A DNA stretch of 64,000 nucleotides, taken from Stegostoma tigrinum. Taxonomy: Eukaryota. The number at the start of each line of letters is the position of its first letter. Positions within the stretch are counted from its first letter, which is position 1. Made by a program: the position numbers and the translations under genes. Location: contig NC_081360.1 in the NCBI RefSeq assembly GCF_030684315.1, positions 23,539,033 to 23,603,032 of the forward strand, in the 5' to 3' direction. The notes under the pieces were generated by a model, which was given only the letters and a program-made list of their open reading frames with translations, did no database searches and was not told the DNA's origin. Positions 1,637 to 46,553 of this stretch are shown piece after piece.

Positions 1637-1681
1637 ATCTGGAAAGTCCTCAAGAGATGTTTCTGTTGACTTATTTTGTAC
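1637..1681 (-). CDS. copy 1 micro-exon (45 nt) VQNKSTETSLEDFPD
   Basis: tccag|...|gtgagt; homolog of 20912-20956. Confidence 0.8.
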
Positions 1682-4050
1682 CTGGAGTAAAACATTCAGA
1701 TTTAAATATTTTATCTTCTAAACCTTGAATTTTAGAATCATTTCAAAACATAACTTCTAAACGATGCCACATTTCAAATGAGTAAGTGGCAGTCCTTGCA
1801 AATTTTGGAATTGGGATTCAGTGCTGGACTGAACCAAACAGCTCCTGTTCTCCAGTGCAGCAAGAATTGACCCTGCTCTGGAACGTTCAGGCTTTGGTGT
1901 TGTTAGTTAAACTCGTCAAGTGTGAGATATGCCATTGAATCTGCAGTGCCCACTCTGCACAATATCCGTTACAAAGGAAGTGCTAGTAATTATAGACTAC
2001 TATTATTGAGAATGTAAGAAAGGCCATTCTCCTGATGCCGGCATTTATGCCTGATCAGACCTGTGGATATTCTACTGGCTTTACCTTCACTGAAGGCAAG
2101 ACACCTTGAGTGTATGTGAGTTTAAACATCAGACTCCCCACCCGCAGTTTTTTCAGGCTGAAATAAATAATCATTTCACACTTCATTCTGAAGCATTTGG
2201 ATTCTGGATTCTACTCATTTTTGTAGATAATTTGGATCAGGAGGAAAGTAATCTTTCAGAATTCCCAGTTTCTACTTACATTGGATGATTCTTTGATTCC
2301 TTTCTCCTTTGATTTGGTTTTGAGCTGGAATAAAATATTAACATATCTATATTTAATACAGAAGACCAATGAGGAATCTGGTAAACTATCTGAAATGTAA
2401 TATCTTCCAGTATCTTGTTGTATATAATTTTGAGGTTACCTCGACACTGTTTTCACTTGACTCAAATGATCCACTTTTACCGTTGATTGTCTTCAGCCCT
2501 CTGCACTCCACATCAACTTCTATAACCTCATCAGCATAATATTCAACGTGGCTTTTGCAAAAGCCTTTCTCCTGTCAAAACGGATTTGATTAAAATTACA
2601 CTCAGTACTTGCATGCTATAAAGCAGTACACGGTGCACTTTCTATCATATATCGCAATTTGAGCAGCTCTATCTATGTTATATAATCCAGTGCACATGGT
2701 TTTTCTGAGATGTAACTCGGCATACAGGGCCCTTCTTGTGATACACATCTGCTGATATGAGTGTGACAATATAACTCAGAACTTACTGCAGACTTTTTGG
2801 TTCGGAAGCGACAGCTGCGATCATCAAATTCCAGTCCAGAATTCTTGGAGCAGACTGTTTCTTTCACAGAGAATGTTAAATCCACATTGTACGACAATTT
2901 TCCTGTGCGATGAATCTAATGAGAGGGAAACAGTTCATTAGTAACATAGATACACAAGCAGGAGGCTGGAAAAATACAGCAAGCTAGGCAGCATCTGGAA
3001 GAGGAGGAATACTGCATCCAGTTCTGGTCGCCCTATTATAGGAAAGATGTGGATGCTTTGGAGAGGGTTCAGAGGAGGTTTACCAGAATGCTGCCTGGAC
3101 TGGCGGGTTTATCTTATGAAGAGAGGTTGACTGAGCTCGGACTTTTTTCATTGGAGAAAAGGAGGAGGAGAGGAGACCTAATTGAGGTATACAAGATAAT
3201 GAGAGGCATAGATAGAGTTGATAGCCAGAGACTATTTTCCAGGGCAGAAAAGGCTAACACGAGGGGTCATAGTTTTAAGCTGGTTGGAGGAAAGTATAGA
3301 GAGGATGTCAGAGGTGGGTTCTTTACACAGAGAGTTGTGAGAGCATGGAATGCGTTGCCAGCAGCAGTTGTAGAAGCAAGGTCATTGGGGACATTTAAGA
3401 GACTGCTGGACATGCATATGGTCACAGAAATTTGAGGGTGCATACATGAGGATCAATGGTCGGCACAACATCGTGGGCTGAAGGGCCTGTTCTGTGCTGT
3501 ACTGTTCTATGTTCTATGTTCTATGAATCAATGTTTTGGGTATTACCCTTCTTCGGGGATGAATGCTGGGGTAGGGGAAGCTAGAGATAGAGGGAGGGGT
3601 GAGGGGTAGCGGAATGGTGGTGATAGGTGGACTCCCATCAGTATGTGTAATATAACATTATGCTTCTGTTTAATAATTCGTGTCACACCGCGCTCAGTAA
3701 TATTCTTCTAGAATTTTGAGAGTGAAACCGACTGAGACCAGGACATACTTACATCCTTCACACTTCTCCTGGTTATCCTACACAGATTGCTGGTCTCAGT
3801 GATTTGGTTCAGTTTTAGAACAGACGCTCTCAGTGCATCCTTTGGGCTTGGTATTCCTGTCGAGAGAAAAGGAAAGTTGTACAAATCATTCTGGAGTTCT
3901 TCAGTGAGTTATTTTTACACATTGGTGATATCTCAGCGACTGAGACTCATTAGCAGTAATTTGTTCCTCAATGGGGTGATGCTCTCTCTGGTACCTACCT
4001 GAGCAGTGGAGAATCTGCACTGCAGCAATGGTGAGGAGGAAGGCTTTCAT
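1637..4050 (-). CDS. SPP2/Spp24-like paralog, copy 1 (3'-incomplete). Exons 3999-4050, 3753-3856, 2787-2915, 2440-2571, 2280-2324, 1637-1681; the rest presumably lies left of the window
   Basis: All introns are GT-AG with a consistent frame. Spliced protein: MKAFLLTIAAVQILHCS-GIPSPKDALRASVLKLNQITETSNLCRITRRSVKD-IHRTGKLSYNVDLTFSVKETVCSKNSGLEFDDRSCRFRTKKSA-EKGFCKSHVEYYADEVIEVDVECRGLKTINGKSGSFESSENSVE-LKTKSKEKGIKESSN-VQNKSTETSLEDFPD. The motifs DAL.ASV.K.N, F.V.ET.C.K.SG and C-x17-C match mammalian SPP2 as recalled. Confidence 0.85.
2280..2324 (-). CDS. copy 1 micro-exon (45 nt) LKTKSKEKGIKESSN
   Basis: ttccag|...|gtaagt; positional homolog of 21551-21595. Confidence 0.75.
2440..2571 (-). CDS. 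copy 1 exon 4 (132 nt, C-x17-C loop plus Ser/Glu stretch)
   Basis: cag|GAG AAA...GTC GAG|gtaacc. Confidence 0.9.
2787..2915 (-). CDS. copy 1 exon 3 (129 nt, first disulfide loop)
   Basis: tag|ATT CAT...TCT GCA|gtaagt; overlaps track ORF 2673..2897. Confidence 0.9.
3005..3525 (+). mobile_element. young 5'-truncated CR1-type LINE with a (TTCTATG)n tail, nested in a short Penelope-end fragment
   Basis: Uninterrupted ORF 3049..3435 (ALERVQRRFTRMLPG...RGDLIEVYKIM); microsatellite tail. Confidence 0.9.
3753..3856 (-). CDS. copy 1 exon 2 (104 nt)
   Basis: cag|GA ATA CCA...AAG GAT|gtaagt. Confidence 0.88.
3999..4050 (-). CDS. copy 1 exon 1 (signal peptide, 52 nt)
   Basis: ATG at 4050; MKAFLLTIAAVQILHCS+G; donor GTAGGT. 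Confidence 0.88.
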
Positions 4051-18954: not shown

Positions 18955-18987
18955 TTAGTGACGGGATCTTGAATCATCATGGTATTC
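18955..18987 (-). CDS. copy 2 terminal coding exon EYHDDSRSRH*
   Basis: ttccag acceptor; TAA at 18957-18955; the 3'UTR is homologous to the copy 3 3'UTR. Confidence 0.78.
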   Translation of the reverse strand, partial: EYHDDSRSRH

Positions 18988-21900
18988 CTGGAATGAACAG
19001 CAGGAATACAAAAATTATTTTTGAATGGACTGAGTTCAGTCTGAGTTTGGTGTTTTATTGTTAATGTTGATCATAATTGAGAGACAGTTCTCTGGCACAA
19101 ATTCCCCAGCTTATACTTACATTTGAAGACATATCATGTGATGTTTCTGTTGATTTGCTTTTCACCTGCATTAAAATGTTCAGATTAATCAGTTTATCAT
19201 CAGGAATCAGTCAGACATTTTGTAGCTAATACTGAGTATATTAAATCATAAATGGGGAAATGTTAACTCTTGATATTTATGGCTCTCTGCGTAAAAGTAA
19301 ATAAATTTAAAAATACAGAACTGCCTCAGACACTATTGCCATGCAGCTGAACGCAGTCTTCATCGGTTTATTCAAGTTAATAATTATCTGACATAAACTT
19401 TCAAATTATACTCACATTGGGAGACTCCTCAACTGATGTTTCTGTTGATTCATTTTTCATCTGGAAAAGAAAGATTTATAACTTATAATTTAAAACTTTG
19501 CAGACAATCTTGATCACCTCAAAGTGCCTCATAGCTAAACCTTTAAATACAATCAGGTTATAAACAAAGAACTGATGAAACTTTAGATTCTGCATTGGGG
19601 TTCAACGGCTCACACTGAAATTTTCCATTTCAGATCCAAGATATTGAGCCGGATGAATCCCGTAGTGATGAGAAAGCTTGATCAATCAGTGTCAGGAGTT
19701 GACTGGTTAGCTTCTTGGTCATTTGCAAGGCTCAACAGTGAACCATCGCCTCTCCAGAAGCTGCTGCCAGTCAGAGACCATCAGTTTTTGCGTCTGAGAG
19801 GTTATCGGTGGGGGCCAAGTCCTTTAGGGGTCCACACAGGCGAGAAGGTAAAACTTTTTGCTTCAGTTCTCATGGGGTGGGGTTTGTAAGGAGCGGAATG
19901 TCAGGAGGAAATGCACGTAAGGGGCAGGGGTGTTTCAATGGTCACTACCCCTTGCACCATCCCCATCCTCCATCGCTGTTTTTAATTGTCCTCAGATTGT
20001 AACAAACGGATACCTCCCCAAACAGGCAGCGGGCCGCTCTGGTTTCCCACTGACAACTTTTCTCACCCACCAGGAAAGCAGCTGATTAGGACGATCATAT
20101 GTTGAGGCCTTTATTGATTGACCACTTCAAGGCCATATTTGCTGGCAAATTGGGAAGGAACTATGCATCCAGCACTAAATTACTGCGGCAGTGAGATGGG
20201 GGCAAGCAAGACTCCATAATGATTCACTCAATGATTTTCTCCAACCACCACATTCTTGCAGGGTTGATAATAGTTTGTCCTCACTGATGGAATGGAGAAA
20301 TATTCACTCCTATTCTCCTAATCTCAAAACAGCAGTGATAAATCCAGCTCTTGGGACGTGGGGCTGTATTGTTGATGGATAAATTACTGGAAGCCACATT
20401 GACCCTTCCACGTAAAGAAATGATGAGGAAATTGTAATCAATGATGCCCTCATGAAACCGTCAGATCGGCATATCGAGTTATTATAGTTCTTGTCAGTGG
20501 CATGTATTTTCCGTGAATCGAGAAAATTCTAAAATGTATGAAATAACTAACAGCTACTGGGCATCAATTCAACAAAATCCATAAACAACCCAACAGTAAC
20601 TAAACATCAGAATCTCCTCAGCCACAGCCTCTGTTTGGGCATTTATTTAATTAAATTATTTAGAGTCTATTGTGATAAACCCAGGTCTCAATGGGCTATA
20701 GGCATCAATATTGATCTGATGGTAGCTCAGTTTAGAGTTTGATACAGAATAATGCCAACAGTATGGAATCAATTCCTGCACCAGCTGAGGCAGTTCTTGT
20801 GACCACTCTGCTCAACTTGCCCCATGGTATTATCCGTAATTGCCTACCCTCAGTTAATGAGGATGCTCTATGAAGCGAAAGTGAGATAAGCACCTAGTGC
20901 AAAATACTTACATCCGGCAAGTCCTCAAGGGATGTTTCTGTTGACATGCTTTTCACCTGGAATAAAATATTTAATTCATATAATTAGCATTTTGCAAATA
21001 GTTTTGAATCATGGAATCATTTCCAAAGAAAAGCTTTAAATCACAGAAGATTATAGGTAAGGAGGTGACAATATTTTGAATTTCAGAGTCACAATTCTTT
21101 GACTCAAGTGTTGCTGTGGAAAAAACCGTTGCAGTAATAATCAATCCAGTTCTGGGACAATGGAGCTACAATGCTGATGGGTATAATAATGCAGACCATT
21201 CTCCATCAACTGGCATTTATTGTGTTGAATCTGCAGGTCCCTTCTAAATCAGACCAGTAGATAATGTATTTTATTGGTGAGAGGTAGTGTTGTCCTAGTG
21301 CCAATATATGTATCTGCCCAGTCATGTGGATGTTCAGCTGACATTAACCTCAGAGAAGAACAAATGCTCCCTCTGCATTTGACTTCCCCCTCCCCTACCC
21401 CAACATACCCTCTCCCCCAATATCTCAGATGAAAACAAATTAACATCTCATACTCCATTCCAACCTCGTTTCATTCTGGGTTTTATACATTTTTTTGATA
21501 ATTCTGCACAACAAGAAAATAATCTGACAAAGTTTTAAGTTTCTACTCACATTTGGTGATTCCTCAACTGACGTGGGTTTTGCTTCGGTTTTGACCTGTA
21601 TTGAAATATTAATATTGAAGTAATTAGCTCAGTAGAACAGTGAGACATGTGAATTTTCAAAATGATAGAAGCCTCATTGTCCTGATGTGTGTAATTGTGT
21701 GCTTACCTCAAGACTGTTTTCGTTCAACTCTGATGAGTCACTGTTGCTGTCAACTGTCTTCAATCCTCGACACTGTACATCAATGTCAACAATCTCATCA
21801 GCAAAATATGCAACATGGCTTTTGCACAAACCTTTCTCCTGTCAGAACAGAATTGATTAAAATTACAATCAGCACACTTTATAATGTAACTCAATACACA

Positions 21901-22862
21901 CATTGCTTTCTTCAATATAACGTGGAATAAATTGCTCATTCAGGGGTATACCTCTGTACCATGAGTATTTGAGTGTGACAGCACAATTCAGAACTTACTG
22001 CAGGCTTTTTGGCACGGAAGTGACAGCTAGGGTCATCGAATTCCAGTCCAGAATTCTTGGAGCAGATGGTTTCTTTCACGGAAAATGTTAAATCCACATT
22101 GTACGACAATTTCCCAGTGCGGTGAATCTAATGAGAAGAGAAACGTTTCATTAGTGTCTGACTGCAGCTGGAGTTCTTACTCTGGGTGGATTCACCCATC
22201 AGTGTGAGTAAAATAACGCGTTCTGTGGTGTAGATATTCAGTTGGCTGGACGGCTGCTTTGCAAGGGATGGGTGCAATTACTGTCCTGGCTGAGATCGCC
22301 ATGAATATAGCACCTCCTTGACATCGCCTTTCACCACAAGGCATGTTGACCTTCAGGTTAAGCAACAACCAGTCTCTTCAGTCTAAAGAGAGAGCATGAT
22401 GTGGTGGTGCCCTAGAGAGCAGCCCGATGTGCTCTGGAACTATGGTGACCTTACATTTACTTTCAATATGACATTCTTCTGCTTTGTAATAATCCGTGTT
22501 GCTCTGCACGCAGTAATATTCTTGCAGAGTTTAGAGAGTGAAACAGACTGACACACTTACATCCTTCACTCTTCTCCTGGTTATCCCGCACAGATTGCTG
22601 GTCTCAGTGATTCGGTTCAGTTTTAGAACAGACGCTCTCAGAGCATCCTTTGGGCTCGGTTTTCCTGCCAAAAGGAAAAGAAAACTGCACAAAACAGAAT
22701 TGTCTGGGGTTCTTTAGCGAGTTATTTTACACATTAGTGATATCTCAGTGAGTGAGCCTCATTGCCAATAACTCGTTGCTTGATGAGGTGCTGCTCTCTC
22801 TGGTACCTACCTGAGCAGTGGAGAATCTGCACTGCAGCAATGGTGAGGAGGAAGACCTTCAT
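18955..22862 (-). CDS. SPP2/Spp24-like paralog, copy 2 (complete, 9 coding exons, 209 aa). Exons 22811-22862, 22561-22664, 21999-22127, 21707-21838, 21551-21595, 20912-20956, 19416-19460, 19121-19165, 18955-18987
   Basis: 630-nt spliced ORF, all introns GT-AG: MKVFLLTIAAVQILHCS-GKPSPKDALRASVLKLNRITETSNLCGITRRRVKD-IHRTGKLSYNVDLTFSVKETICSKNSGLEFDDPSCHFRAKKPA-EKGLCKSHVAYFADEIVDIDVQCRGLKTVDSNSDSSELNENSLE-VKTEAKPTSVEESPN-VKSMSTETSLEDLPD-MKNESTETSVEESPN-VKSKSTETSHDMSSN-EYHDDSRSRH*. TATA box upstream and AATAAA downstream. Confidence 0.88.
19121..19165 (-). CDS. copy 2 micro-exon 8 VKSKSTETSHDMSSN
   Basis: 45 nt, phase 0-0, cag/gtaagt. Confidence 0.82.
19416..19460 (-). CDS. copy 2 micro-exon 7 MKNESTETSVEESPN
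   Basis: 45 nt, phase 0-0, cag/gtgagt. Confidence 0.82.
20912..20956 (-). CDS. copy 2 micro-exon 6 VKSMSTETSLEDLPD
   Basis: 45 nt, phase 0-0, cag/gtaagt. Confidence 0.82.
21551..21595 (-). CDS. copy 2 micro-exon 5 VKTEAKPTSVEESPN
   Basis: 45 nt, phase 0-0, cag/gtgagt. Confidence 0.82.
21707..21838 (-). CDS. copy 2 exon 4
   Basis: 132 nt, cag/gtaagc. Confidence 0.9.
21999..22127 (-). CDS. copy 2 exon 3
   Basis: 129 nt, tag/gtaagt. Confidence 0.9.
22561..22664 (-). CDS. copy 2 exon 2
   Basis: 104 nt, cag/gtaagt. Confidence 0.88.
22811..22862 (-). CDS. copy 2 exon 1 (signal peptide)
   Basis: ATG at 22862; donor GTAGGT. Confidence 0.88.
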
Positions 22863-41406: not shown

Positions 41407-41623
41407 GTGATCCACAGAATACAAGACAACACACACCAAAAGACAGAACATTTACAAACTATAGAATCTTTCAGTTACAGTGAAATATACAGTCAGGAAG
41501 CCCAGGTTTATAATATGAACAAGCACAATCGATAACATCTTCTTTAATTGGAATGAGATCTTGTGTTAACACCAAGCTCAGCTTTTCAGAAGTTTCATTC
41601 CTGCTTGGTGTTGGAATCTTGAA

Positions 41624-41637
41624 TCACCATAGTGTCC
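41624..41637 (-). CDS. copy 3 terminal coding exon (TGA at 41626-41624 in the shifted frame; ancestral frame runs to 41578)
   Basis: ttccag acceptor; homologous to 18955-18987. Confidence 0.65.
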
Positions 41638-44600
41638 CTGGAAAGAACAGCATGAAGGCAATGGTCATTTTCAGATGCAATTAGTTCAATATTTTATTGT
41701 TATTGATGATCATGACCGAGAGACTATTCTTGGCACTAAGTCCCAGTTTATACTCACGTTTGAAGCCTCCCGCAGTGACCAGTCTTTTGATTTGTTTGAC
41801 ACCTGTATTTAAAAGTATCAGGTATCAATTTATTTTTACTTCTCTAAATTTACAGATTCATATGAAATTTGCTGTTTACAATGATATTAGATTACAAATT
41901 ATTAGATTTTGAAAGGTGATGAAACAGTAACTCCTTAGATTTCAGAGTTGGGAATTCAACAACTCAGCGAAGAAATCCTCACCAGTGCAGCAATAGTCTG
42001 TTCAGCCCTAGGATAGGGGTTCTTGCATAAATTAATGGAGAGTCAGGTTATTGATGAGATTGCCCCTCTTGTGCATTCTTAAAGACACAGGGATTTTTGT
42101 TTGGCAAGTATTGAACATCTAAAAGTTGATCCATTACATTTTTTAAGCGTGAAATAATTTTCATGGGAACAGGTAAACATCTCCTCTTAAGTCCCTCCCA
42201 AAATCCTTTGACTAGCACTGGCGAAGACTTGACAAGATTCATCAGGTCGCCTTCCTTCCCTGGCTGATTCGGGGTGACGTTGAATTCATTAAAAACATAG
42301 CACAGTGCTGTCACAGACTCCACTCTAACCAGAGAAATACGCCATGTGGTTGCCAATAGTGTTGTGGCAAAAATCCAGATATATACTCACGTTTGTAGAC
42401 TCTTGGACGTGGAGTTCTTCTCATTTTCACCTGAATTTAAATAGAAATATTTATATATGCAGTCCAGGGGTTGATGTGATGTTTCTTTGAAACTTTAGCT
42501 TTAGCATCATCAAAACTCAATAACCAAAACAACAGATTAAAGGAGGAGATTTAAAATAGTAAATTTCTGGGATGTGGTGCAATGTATCAGTGTGGAATGG
42601 GGGTGAAGGCATCACCAAATATGTGAATGGTTTACATTGATCATTGGTCAAGATGCTAAAGTAATAAAATGGACTGCGTTGTGTTGACCCTCGGATAATA
42701 AAGAGGAATTATTTCTTTGAACAGCAGCAAGCAATAATAACATCTCTGTGCAGGTTTACTGCTGGTGAAAAGTCAAGAGCTGCTCTGGCTGTCATTCCAT
42801 TGCAGCAGGGGTTCGCCAAAGGAAGAGTCTGAAGATACAACTTCAAGCCTGACAAAATCTGAGTCTAGAGCAAAAGGCAAAGTCAGAGACCCTATTGTCC
42901 AGATGAGTTAAGTTGTGAGGTTACCTCGATGCTGTTTTCACTGGACTCGAAAGATCCACTTCTGCTGTCAAATGTCTTCAATCCTCGACACTCCACATCA
43001 ACGTCAACAACTTCATCAGCAAAATATTCAACGTGGCTCTTGCAAAATCCTCTTGCCTGTCAAATGAAATGGGAGACTTTTCAAGTTATTTATTACTGGG
43101 AGACTATTAAAGATATTTATTACATCATTTTCAGACTGAAATCTGAAGGGAGCTCAATGCACATACAAGTCAATGCACATAGATATTTCTATTATATAAT
43201 CTGATAAATGACTGCCTTTTCTTTACAAAACATAATCAATACTCACAGCCCTGCTTACGATATGACCAAATGCACACAGTCCATTCTGCGACATAAATCA
43301 TCATACAAGGCCCTTTCTCGGATAATTTTCACAGCATGCAACACTTTCTATGACATTGCATAATACACATTGCACTTTCCACTTATAATTCAATACTCAT
43401 GACCCCTTCTATGATACTCATTAATCAATACCCACAACCTTTTCTAACATAACCTTGCGCACATGGCATTTTTTTGATATAGCTCAATACAGAGCCCTTC
43501 TACCCTTTCTGTGATAATCTTTGGTATACACAATACTTTCTATTATATAATTCTGTGCACTTGTAATTTGAATGTAGTTGTGAAGTTTAGAGTCATAGAG
43601 TCTCAAACAGACACTGCGGTCCAACCAGCCCATGCCGAACATAATCCCAGGCTAAGTAGACCCACCTGCCTGTTCTTGGCCCTTATCCCTCTAAACATTT
43701 CTTACTCATGTATTTGCCTAAATGTCATTTAAAGGCTGTAAATGTGCCCACATCCACCACTTCCTGGGGAAGTTCATTCCACACGCAAACCACTCCTGTG
43801 TAAAACAATTGCCCCTCATGTCTTTTTAAAATCTTTCCTCTGTCACCTTAAAAATATACCCTCTATTCTTGAGCTCCCCACCCTATGGAAAAGACACCTG
43901 CTATTCACCTCATCTATACCCATCATGATTTTATAAACCTTTAGATACCCCTCAACTTACTGCGCTCTAGAGAAAAAAGACTCAACCTATCCAGCCTCTT
44001 CCCGTAACTCAAACCCTCCATTCCAGGCGACATCCTGATAAATCTCTTCCGAACCCTCTCCAGCTTAATTATATCCCTCCATAAAGCAGGCAGGCCAGAA
44101 CTGGACACAGTACTCTAGAAGAGGCCTCACCAATATCCTATACAACCTCAACATGATGTCCCAACTCCTCCACACAAAGGCCTGAGTATTGAAAGCAAGC
44201 ATGCTAAATGCCTTCTTAACCACCCCATCTATATGTAATGCAAAATTCAAAGAATTATTACATACCTAAAACCCAAGTCTATCTGTTTCTCTGATATTAC
44301 TCAATATGCAAGTCACTTTCTATAATAAAGCTGAGTATACCGTAACTTTCAATGGCATAACTTTGTATGCATGAAGTTTGAATGTGACAAATGTAACTCA
44401 GAACTTACTGCGGCCTTTTTGGGATGGAAGCGGCAGCTGGGGTCATCAAATTCCAGTCCAGAATTCTTGGAGCAGACTGTTTCTTTCACGGAGAAGGTTA
44501 AATCCACGTTGTATGACAATTTTCCTGTGCGGTAAATCTAATGAGAGGAAAACAGTTCACTAGTGTCTGACTGTACTTGGTTTTCTTACTCTGAACTGAC

Positions 44601-46553
44601 TGACCTCCTACGTAAGAATCACAAGGACAACAATGCCAATTTATATAAAATCTTTAATGTAACAAACTAACCACAAGATGCTACACAAGAGTGTTATAAA
44701 GCAACATTTTGCACTGAACCAAATAAGGTAATGGTTGAATAATTGCCAAAAGGTCAATCAAGGAGGAATCAAAGACAGAAGTGGAGAGATAGCGAGGCAC
44801 AGGCAATGAATTTCAAAGCTTAGAGCCCAGGTAGCTGAAGGCAAAGACGCTAATAGTGGAGAGATGAAAATCAGGAATACTCACTGATATGTAAGGGCTT
44901 AATAGTCTTAATGGATTAATGATAAGAAGTGCATAAAATGTTATCACTTGGACTTGGGTGGGGAGTCAGCTTTGCGTCTTGAAGGAGTAAGAACTAACAT
45001 CAAGGTGTATCGCTGACTCATTGGCAGTGCCTATCATACCAACAGTACTTAGTATCTGGCTACTATCACACAACAAACTTCATCTTATTTAAGTTAAGAG
45101 TATCTTCTCATTATACTACAAAGAATTGTTTTCTCAACGAGAGTAGACCAAGTGGACCCAGTCGTCCCTATCAGGGAAGAGAATGATGTCAGCAAATCTA
45201 CCGGATAGCTCTTACCCCATGGTGTGCTGTGGTGAGGATTCATCTTACAACATTCATGAAGGCAGAAATGAGGACTGGAGGTATCAAGGGAGTGTTGTGA
45301 ATTTGCAGGAAATCAGGGGAGTCAGGAGTGAGGACAAAGGAGGGTTTGCGAAATTTTAAAATCAAGGTATTGTTTGACTTGCAGCTAATGAAGGCTGCAG
45401 GGTGATCATGGTAACAGACCTTGCTACGAATTACGACACATGCAGCAAACCTTTGTACGAACTCAAGTTTATGGAGGAGAAAGGATGAAAGATAAGTCAG
45501 ATGTGCAGCTGAATAGTCAGGTTTATATAATATTGTGAGAATCAAAAATGGAAATTGCTGATAAAACGGATGTTGCCAGCAATTCTGTTTTTGTTTCAGA
45601 TCTCCAACATTCACAGTTCCTTGTTATATTGTAACAGCATGAGAATATTTTTAATAAGACCAATAGTAGACCATTCTGCCCCTCAAGTCTGCACACAATT
45701 CCATAAAATCATGGCTGATCTGATTGTGTTGTAGATTCCACGTTTACTGCCTATCCCCCTACCTGTTGACCAGAGGTCTAGAGGTAAGAACAAGGGCTTC
45801 AGCAGCAAATGAGCTGAGACTAGGGTTGAGACAAGCGATGTTACAGAGACAGAAACTAGCAGACTTGGTGACGATATGAAATTCTGCTCGGAAGCTCTTC
45901 TCAGGGTCAAAAACGTTAGAAGGGGTCTGGTTGAGCCTGAGACAGTTGTGGTGAGAGTGACAAGAGCCAAGTGGAATTGCAACTTGAAATAAGTCAGTGC
46001 GTCAGCAGGATCTCCAAAGGATGACATGAGAGATACAGAGGGAGCAATAAGCTGATCTCACAGAGTGGGAAATCTGGGATAGTTGAGGAGAACTGGAAGG
46101 ACAGAGAATTGAGCCAGTAGGAGGCATGATAAAGAAGGAGTGGAAACTAGGAAGAATGAAGGAAAAATAAGCTGAAAGAGAAGAGGAATAAATGTTCTCA
46201 GTAATAATGTTGTAGAGTTTAGAGAGTGAAACAGACTGAGGCCAGGACGCACTTACATCCTTCACTCTTCTCCTGGTTATCCCGCACAGATTGCTGGTCT
46301 CAGTGATTCGGTTCAGTTTTAGAACAGACGCTCTCAGAGCATCTTTCGGGCTTGGTTTTCCTGTTGAGAGAAAAGGAAAGTTGTACAAAACATTCTGGAG
46401 TTCTTCAGTGAGTTATTTTACACATTGATGATATCTCAGCGAGTGAGCCTCACTGCCAATAACTTGTTGCTCAATGGGGTGCTGCTCTCTCTGGTACCTA
46501 CCTGAGCAGTGGACAATCTGCACTGCAGCAATGGTGAGGAGGAAAACCTTCAT
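41624..46553 (-). CDS. SPP2/Spp24-like paralog, copy 3. Exons 46502-46553, 46257-46360, 44409-44537, 42925-43056, 42391-42430 (40 nt), 41758-41802, 41624-41637; 171 aa with a cationic tail
   Basis: MKVFLLTIAAVQIVHCS-GKPSPKDALRASVLKLNRITETSNLCGITRRRVKD-IYRTGKLSYNVDLTFSVKETVCSKNSGLEFDDPSCRFHPKKAA-ARGFCKSHVEYFADEVVDVDVECRGLKTFDSRSGSFESSENSIE-VKMRRTPRPRVYKRVKQIKRLVTAGGFKRTLW*. If the 40-nt exon is skipped, the tail reads VSNKSKDWSLREASN-GHYGDSRFQHQAGMKLLKS* (stop at 41578). Confidence 0.8.
41758..41802 (-). CDS. copy 3 micro-exon (45 nt)
   Basis: tacag/gtgagt; homolog of copy 2 exon 8, with a shared downstream intron. Confidence 0.78.
42391..42430 (-). CDS. copy 3 frame-shifting micro-exon (40 nt)
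   Basis: ttcag|GTGAAAATG...TCTACAAAC|gtgagt; both ends resemble the 45-nt exon family, but it is 5 nt shorter. Confidence 0.68.
42925..43056 (-). CDS. copy 3 exon 4
   Basis: 132 nt, cag/gtaacc. Confidence 0.9.
43590..44290 (-). mobile_element. 5'-truncated CR1-type LINE in copy 3 intron 3
   Basis: ORF 44065..44250 (LYRILVRPLLEYCVQFW). Confidence 0.85.
44409..44537 (-). CDS. copy 3 exon 3
   Basis: 129 nt, tag/gtaagt. Confidence 0.9.
46257..46360 (-). CDS. copy 3 exon 2
   Basis: 104 nt; inside track ORF 46002..46388. Confidence 0.88.
46502..46553 (-). CDS. copy 3 exon 1 (signal peptide)
   Basis: ATG at 46553; donor GTAGGT. Confidence 0.88.

Follow-up and report, generated by a model that had tools for sequence, protein, structure and literature searches.

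A conserved cationic tail of frameshift origin in elasmobranch spp2.3 genes and its possible role in pre-mineralising cartilage

How sharks and rays mineralise their cartilage without bone is an open question, for which the spp2.3 proteins have recently been proposed as main players acting through acidic phosphorylated tails. The window, the 64,000-nucleotide stretch of zebra shark (Stegostoma tigrinum) DNA analysed here, contains three tandem copies of one such gene, all on the minus strand, and the third copy raises the question of how a member of this family came to encode a tail of the opposite charge and what that tail might do.

Copy 3, its 40-nt exon and the surrounding cluster

Copy 3 consists of seven coding exons whose predicted splice product is 171 amino acids (aa) long, with a hydrophobic N-terminus, a serine stretch closing exon 4 and a predicted tail of 32 aa with a net charge of +12, from which D and E are absent. 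The exons of copy 3 and its two sister copies are as follows.

46502..46553, minus strand: copy 3 exon 1, 52 nt; start codon and signal-peptide-like stretch, in agreement with RefSeq model XP_048390101.2
46257..46360, minus strand: copy 3 exon 2, 104 nt; cystatin-like domain
44409..44537, minus strand: copy 3 exon 3, 129 nt; cystatin-like domain (Spp-24 E 4e-5, Cathelicidins E 0.12)
42925..43056, minus strand: copy 3 exon 4, 132 nt; end of the cystatin-like domain and serine/acidic stretch, ending in phase 0
42391..42430, minus strand: copy 3 exon 5, 40 nt; net loss of 5 nt relative to the 45-nt family unit, frame shifted
41758..41802, minus strand: copy 3 exon 6, 45 nt; homologue of an acidic tail exon in the shifted frame, with most of the conserved cationic core
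41624..41637, minus strand: start of the copy 3 last exon, coding in the shifted frame; new TGA at 41626-41624
41605..41607, minus strand: CAA in copy 3 at the site of the old family TAA, from comparison of the last exon with copy 2
18955..22862, minus strand: copy 2, an spp2.3 paralog whose acidic tail includes four 45-nt exons (P0043)
1637..4050, minus strand: copy 1, acidic-tailed spp2.3 paralog matching the named zebra-shark protein P0010; its last exon and two further tail exons fall beyond the left edge of the window

An earlier, sequence-only reading of this DNA had proposed that a 40-nt exon converts an acidic tail into a cationic peptide, and its description of the exon is largely borne out. 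Exon 5 (42430-42391) is 40 nt long and flanked by cag and gtgagt, splicing of the seven predicted exons reproduces the +12 tail lacking D and E, and codon 11 of the last exon, TAA in copy 2, is CAA in copy 3. The length also holds in contigs of DNA runs, as a 413-bp contig over 42311-42723 is exact across the exon, with no other letters and no gaps, in all four DNA runs (two samples, one study), and is thus not an assembly error. Elsewhere, runs X1-X3 differ from the window by three substitutions in exon 4 (42985-43002) and all four runs carry a 4-nt intron deletion at 42173. Two statements of the earlier reading hold in part. The 40 nt upstream of exon 5 contain no other AG, as expected if no nearby splice site restores the frame, but GT occurs at exon lengths of 22, 30, 40 and 44, of which 30 alone is a multiple of three and offers a weak GTCTAC donor. 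Likewise, all seven other tail exons of the window copies are 45 nt long, whereas the cluster elsewhere contains another 40-nt, one 42-nt and one 51-nt exon. The RefSeq model of copy 3 (XP_048390101.2, P0021; LOC125453961) contains the 40-nt exon but continues into the last intron to give 192 aa; the ...RTLW end is present in whale-shark protein P0002, the tail of which equals the one predicted for copy 3, and in the second zebra-shark gene (P0018).

All nine exon-4 matches of the genome lie within one 240-kb cluster in which cationic and acidic genes alternate. The genome contains exactly two cationic exon-6 sequences, the second belonging to a gene ∼125 kb from copy 3 on the opposite strand, with an exon 5 that is also 40 nt long. 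The two exons 6 differ at two of 45 bases, both silent in the new frame, and one of these differences creates a TGA in the old frame of the second gene. The second isoform that skipping of exon 5 had been expected to yield is therefore removed in that gene. Its old-frame last exon (G000:C9:23708872) is nevertheless intact with the TAA kept, and in white-shark model P0172 the last exon, read in the old frame, directly follows a cationic-type exon 4; an isoform skipping both tail exons, conversion of the last exon or model error could each possibly account for these two observations. The inverted second half of the cluster (G000:C9:23682824-23759250, loci L014-L021) contains an spp2.2-like gene, the second cationic gene and more acidic copies, and loci L007 and L008, with stop codons in exon 4, are likely pseudogenes. 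Read by eye, window positions 62776-58851 on the minus strand hold the 3' part of a more distant spp2 gene, with a 135-nt exon, a 51-nt exon at 59836-59786 and a basic last exon, which is likely spp2.1.

By its sequence, copy 3 is an elasmobranch spp2.3 gene (secreted phosphoprotein 24-like). The Spp-24 profile scores 34.6-46.6 bits in eight of eight proteins (Pfam cut-off 26), including 36.6 for XP_048390101.2, whereas none of the eight exceeds the cut-off of 21 for the Cathelicidins profile, the best reaching 15.6 bits. With PF00666, XP_048390101.2 gave no match line and five other cationic proteins scored 12.4-13.7 bits (cut-off 21); in a PF00666 search of the zebra-shark genome none of six candidates matched, but the control likewise gave no match, so that this search does not bear on the presence of a true cathelicidin in the species. 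Cysteines C74, C87, C100 and C118 are invariant in all 49 aligned proteins. An AlphaFold model of the whale-shark ortholog, built on the 49-sequence alignment, predicts a confident cystatin fold followed by a disordered tail, residues 126-171 falling below pLDDT 50. Its best PDB match is the LL-37 cathelin domain (4eyc; E 1.4e-4, 23% identity), and the next matches, cystatin F, chemerin and cystatin E/M, lie within a factor of 7 of it, which indicates that the match reflects a shared cystatin fold. In a tree of the front (pre-tail) part of 96 of 156 proteins, with fragments, fused models, most isoforms and near-copies left out, spp2.2 (10 rows, anchored by XP_038646305.1) forms one side of a 100/99 branch, and copy 3 falls within spp2.3, beside relatives of catshark s2 and apart from spp2.2. 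Copy 3 is listed in a published synteny table (PMC13188829). Membership of the cathelicidins, to which the earlier reading had likened copy 3, thus fails on the Pfam profile and, as described below, on exon number and on expression of the catshark counterparts.

Conservation, origin and gene conversion

Among predicted RefSeq models, the cationic core occurs in 35 of 188 collected proteins and in 19 of the 23 species with hits, comprising 12 sharks (carpet, cat, hound, basking, horn, sevengill and saw) and seven batoids (rays and skates). A cationic record was absent among the collected proteins of white shark, two Mobula species and chimaera, so that three of 22 elasmobranch species have no such record and 19 of 22 have both tail kinds. 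Conservation was assessed with one record per species in 17 species (12 sharks, five rays). Shark-ray identity is 72% at tail positions 11-23 and 74% over domain residues 19-93, compared with 26% at tail positions 1-10 and 41-59% in the acidic tail exons. The core retains fixed hydrophobic residues (V, Y, V, I/V and L/I), and a dibasic pair occupies tail positions 4-5 in 16 of the 17 species. Cationic tails carry a net charge of +7 to +16 and no SxE motif in 17 of 17 cases, against 5-11 SxE motifs in each of 22 acidic tails, and the mature proteins have a pI of 9.6-10.0 and 5.6-5.9, respectively. Conservation of the cationic core between sharks and rays, which the earlier reading had left to comparison with relatives, supports the view that the shifted frame is under selection. 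Its suggestion that the peptide is released after Val is not upheld, Val being also the usual first residue of acidic tail exons and replaced by M or L in six of 17 species. In Scyliorhinus (P0030, P0007, P0031 and P0032) the cationic 45-nt unit is tandemly duplicated, giving tails of +14 to +16; judged from these proteins, exon repetition has continued in the new frame. Rhinoraja P0078 and Hemitrygon P0086 have basic tails (+10 and +12) that are apparently in the old frame, possibly through substitution or through repeats of the basic end of the last exon, and may represent further independent moves to positive charge.

That a frameshift made an acidic SxE tail cationic is supported by homology between the cationic exons and the acidic exons of the cluster. 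Between cationic exon 6 and the 15 acidic 45-nt exons, 21-31 of 45 nt agree; for shuffled sequences the best match averages 16 and reaches a maximum of 26. At positions 1, 3, 4, 5, 7, 12 and 15 (at 5 in a tie with V), the acidic exons translated in the shifted frame have the same most frequent residue as the cationic exon, and their mean net charge is +2.3 versus −1.1 unshifted. Eight of the 15 contain TGA at shifted codon 11, and ten of the 35 cationic records (nine batoid, one sawshark) terminate exactly at this codon while the others continue, exon borders in species other than the zebra shark being placed by protein alignment. The sevengill protein has E at position 2, as the acidic frame predicts, and the spp2.2 and chimaera proteins end in the acidic frame. 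The resemblance of shifted acidic exons to the core, their frequent possession of the stop used in rays, and the acidic state of spp2.2 and chimaera indicate a change from acidic to cationic. The acidic state is therefore ancestral, and the first cationic form likely stopped at codon 11 and was later extended in most sharks. For the five bases lost from exon 5, one- and two-gap placements align alike (21-23 of 40) and the two genes disagree. The birth of a new and strongly conserved peptide through a frameshift is unusually clear here, and rays still display the intermediate stop.

The cationic tail is common to sharks and rays, which leaves unsupported the proposal that it arose independently in copy 3; most likely the frameshift arose once, before the two lineages separated roughly 250-300 million years ago. 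The front part of the proteins tells a different history. In the front-part tree the 25 cationic rows need eight to nine changes, all forced by well-supported branches, cationic genes fall beside acidic copies from the same lineage, and a single cationic clade is rejected (AU p 0.002). This scatter by lineage suggests gene conversion, and the single origin therefore rests on the tail. Eight parallel frameshifts were considered and rejected: the tails share V2, L/I8 and V9, where the shifted acidic frame gives E, N and I, so that one origin followed by conversion is far likelier. These comparisons suggest that a single origin has very probably been masked by gene conversion of exons 1-4. Conversion is also consistent with the exon pattern of copy 3, in which exon 1 matches all five compared paralogs at 48-50 of 52 bases while exon 4 matches the other cationic gene at 128 of 132 bases and the other paralogs at only 100-107. 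Copy 1, although acidic, has an exon 4 (window 2571-2440) with a cationic-type end and falls among the cationic genes in the tree; a conversion tract is likely. In rays, the folded domain of cationic genes P0073, P0074, P0077 and P0066 is basic (+5 to +13), acidic copies being mostly −1 to −6, and these four form one group in the tree, a pattern that would fit slower conversion in that lineage. The apparent recent species-specific duplications of the spp2 cluster would then at least partly be gene conversion.

Expression and possible function

The catshark counterparts of copy 3 can be identified in published expression data, in which XP_038646303.1 is spp2.3s2 and XP_038646306.1 is spp2.3s1 (PMC13188829). 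Both proteins carry the same cationic core as copy 3, and the acidic catshark records are s3, s4, s5, s6 and s7 isoform X1. In Meckel's cartilage, chondrocranium and vertebrae, respectively, s1 reaches 1109, 373 and 1078 TPM and s2 reaches 2692, 877 and 2378 TPM (PMC13188829); the s1+s2 share of spp2.3 transcripts calculated from these tables is 0.45, 0.43 and 0.42. Across 28 non-cartilage samples of healthy adult catshark the two genes attain at most 11.6 TPM, with 0 in blood, 0-3 in spleen, 0-2 in gill, <1 in skin denticles, 0 in liver and values within 0-3 in intestine (PMC13188829). Embryonic vertebrae contain 545 cationic versus 225 TPM for the five acidic copies at 5 cm, before mineralisation, and 1834 versus 1935 TPM at 8 cm, after its onset (PMC13188829). 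These TPM values derive from kallisto on near-identical paralogs, in unchallenged animals of a species other than the zebra shark, and the tissue panel lies outside the Leydig and epigonal organs; the in situ probes of that study cross-react and cannot separate the copies (PMC13188829).

Our preferred reading, to which we assign a probability of roughly 0.55, is that copy 3 carries a frameshift that arose once before the shark/ray split and that its tail would serve as an electrostatic anchor on the sulfated glycosaminoglycans (GAGs) of pre-mineralising cartilage. Polyanion binding would be the best functional reading of the tail. Chondrocytes would secrete a protein of pI near 10 into a matrix dense in sulfated GAGs, and the cationic tail would hold the cystatin-like domain in this matrix ahead of the mineral front. 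Labour would be divided, the cationic copies priming or holding the matrix and the acidic, likely phosphorylated paralogs binding and handling calcium phosphate. Secretion by chondrocytes in the zebra shark, GAG binding and the division of labour are what we infer from the counterparts and the tail. The XBBXBX pattern, which is linked to heparin binding, occurs in 17 of 17 cationic tails, but is common in any K/R-rich stretch, which limits its weight for GAG binding. Retention of the domain in matrix would be expected from this pattern and from the behaviour of synthetic +14 peptides, which enter cartilage and are retained by aggrecan GAGs (PMC9297664). The conserved hydrophobic residues exceed what plain charge would need and would fit a specific partner or a membrane equally. 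An amphipathic helix was considered and rejected, as the helical moment of the tail (0.70) is not above that of shuffles (p 0.07) and the tail is disordered in the AlphaFold model. A bolder and less likely extension is a two-part mineralisation system made from one exon in two frames, in which a polycation would partner a phosphorylated polyanion at ∼1:1 in calcifying cartilage, cation first, with the domains homogenised by gene conversion throughout the history of sharks and rays and the tails kept apart.

Three rivals of the anchor are mutually compatible, and each appears unlikely. The cationic tail may instead pair with the phosphorylated SxE tails, or with phosphate or nascent mineral, forming complexes or droplets of balanced charge that would regulate calcium phosphate in the matrix. 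The near 1:1 ratio of cationic to acidic transcripts in all three adult cartilages (0.45, 0.43 and 0.42) and at 8 cm, the alternation of the two gene kinds in the cluster, their joint retention in 19 of 22 elasmobranchs and the match of net +7 to +16 with 5-11 SxE sites all speak for pairing. The 2.4:1 ratio before mineralisation does not, and GAGs would be by far the more abundant polyanion compared with the spp2 paralogs; we give pairing a small chance. A lesser one attaches to the proposal that the frameshift re-created the Arg-rich end of mammalian Spp24 and that the cationic copies act as the cluster's growth-factor (BMP/TGF-beta) regulators. BMPs are themselves basic, heparin-binding proteins, for which a +12 tail would be an odd partner. 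The mammalian Arg-rich C-terminus raises affinity for BMP-2 and TGF-beta, truncation lowering it (PMC3753320), and is trimmed by proteases; the order of domain, serine stretch and basic end matches, dibasic pairs are found at positions 4-5 in 16 of 17 species and expression precedes mineralisation. Yet the tails are non-homologous, that of the shark being derived from acidic exons, and the likely spp2.1 gene and spp2.2 already have basic stretches.

Most cationic peptides of this kind kill microbes in dilute buffer, and in a convergent cathelicidin the tail would be released to protect avascular cartilage, or inflamed tissue after induction, from microbes. The layout is alike, the LL-37 cathelin domain is the best structural match (E 1.4e-4, 23% identity), the charge and hydrophobic spacing of the tail resemble those of peptide antibiotics and catsharks have duplicated the cationic exon (+14 to +16). 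This reading is nevertheless less probable again than the previous two. In healthy animals the catshark counterparts range from 0 to 3 TPM across blood, spleen, gill, skin denticles, intestine and liver (PMC13188829), the peptide is spread over three of seven exons rather than confined to the last of four, its core is nearly invariant from shark to ray whereas cathelicidin peptides are highly variable, and the cathelin match reflects the common cystatin fold. Catshark spp2.1 ends in an Arg-rich stretch and its transcripts occur in gill (6145 TPM), an olfactory sample, skin denticles and oesophagus (PMC13188829); on those grounds it is the better barrier or antimicrobial candidate. That the frameshift is recent or neutral, the copy decaying or the exon always skipped is already largely refuted and retains a negligible probability. 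Splicing of copy 3 is predicted only and its RefSeq model ends differently, one white-shark model (P0172) skips both tail exons, and the cluster contains two broken copies. Against this, the tail is conserved in 19 species, the two zebra-shark genes differ only silently, the skip frame contains a stop and the catshark counterparts are very highly expressed.

Relation to known systems

The protein records are already known in RefSeq as 'secreted phosphoprotein 24-like' and the spp2.3 family is published, copy 3 being Sti3961 in Table S14 of PMC13188829, whose s1 and s2 share the cationic core. The text of that paper describes all duplicates as gaining SxE motifs, with an Arg-rich end only in spp2.1 and L2, and the spp2.3 clade as having many SxE motifs in the tail, whereas copy 3-type tails have none. 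Figures such as its Fig. 9 aside, the text of this 2026 paper does not describe the cationic tail of s1 and s2, and none of the words 'frameshift', 'exon', 'gene conversion', 'concerted', 'antimicrobial' or 'cathelicidin' is used in it. Searches of the literature, largely outside subscription journals, likewise turned up neither the frameshift origin nor the conserved cationic subtype nor any sign of gene conversion in this cluster. With ∼45% of catshark spp2.3 transcripts encoding the opposite charge, the mineralisation model is changed. PMC13188829 explains the grouping by species through duplications that were recent and independent; the shared tail suggests instead an old subtype homogenised by conversion, and caution is warranted wherever species-specific 'recent duplications' in this cluster may in part be conversion products.

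Mammalian SPP2/Spp24 resembles copy 3 in its signal peptide, Spp-24 cystatin-like domain, serine stretch, basic C-terminus and skeletal matrix context. It differs in being a single, liver-made gene, and its Arg-rich end is longer and non-homologous to the shark tail. SPP2 and the cathelicidins both belong to the cystatin superfamily (PMC2784779), and the latter (PF00666; LL-37 precursor) share with copy 3 a fold of the cystatin type, an acidic stretch after it and a cationic end. Cathelicidins have four exons with the mature peptide wholly in exon 4, and the peptides are highly variable (PMC3487008); a shark cathelicidin is named nowhere in the available text of PMC6795676. Copy 3, in contrast, lies below the Pfam cut-off, has seven exons at a probable spp2 locus and a conserved tail, and its counterparts are expressed in cartilage.

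The proposed anchor would also have functional parallels among matrix proteins. Chondroadherin and PRELP are cartilage proteins with a cationic, GAG-binding end. Their domains are unrelated to that of copy 3 and have no frameshift origin, and GAG binding by the shark tail is predicted; together with the synthetic +14 peptides (PMC9297664), they nevertheless share with it a short K/R-rich end of similar charge in a proteoglycan-rich matrix.
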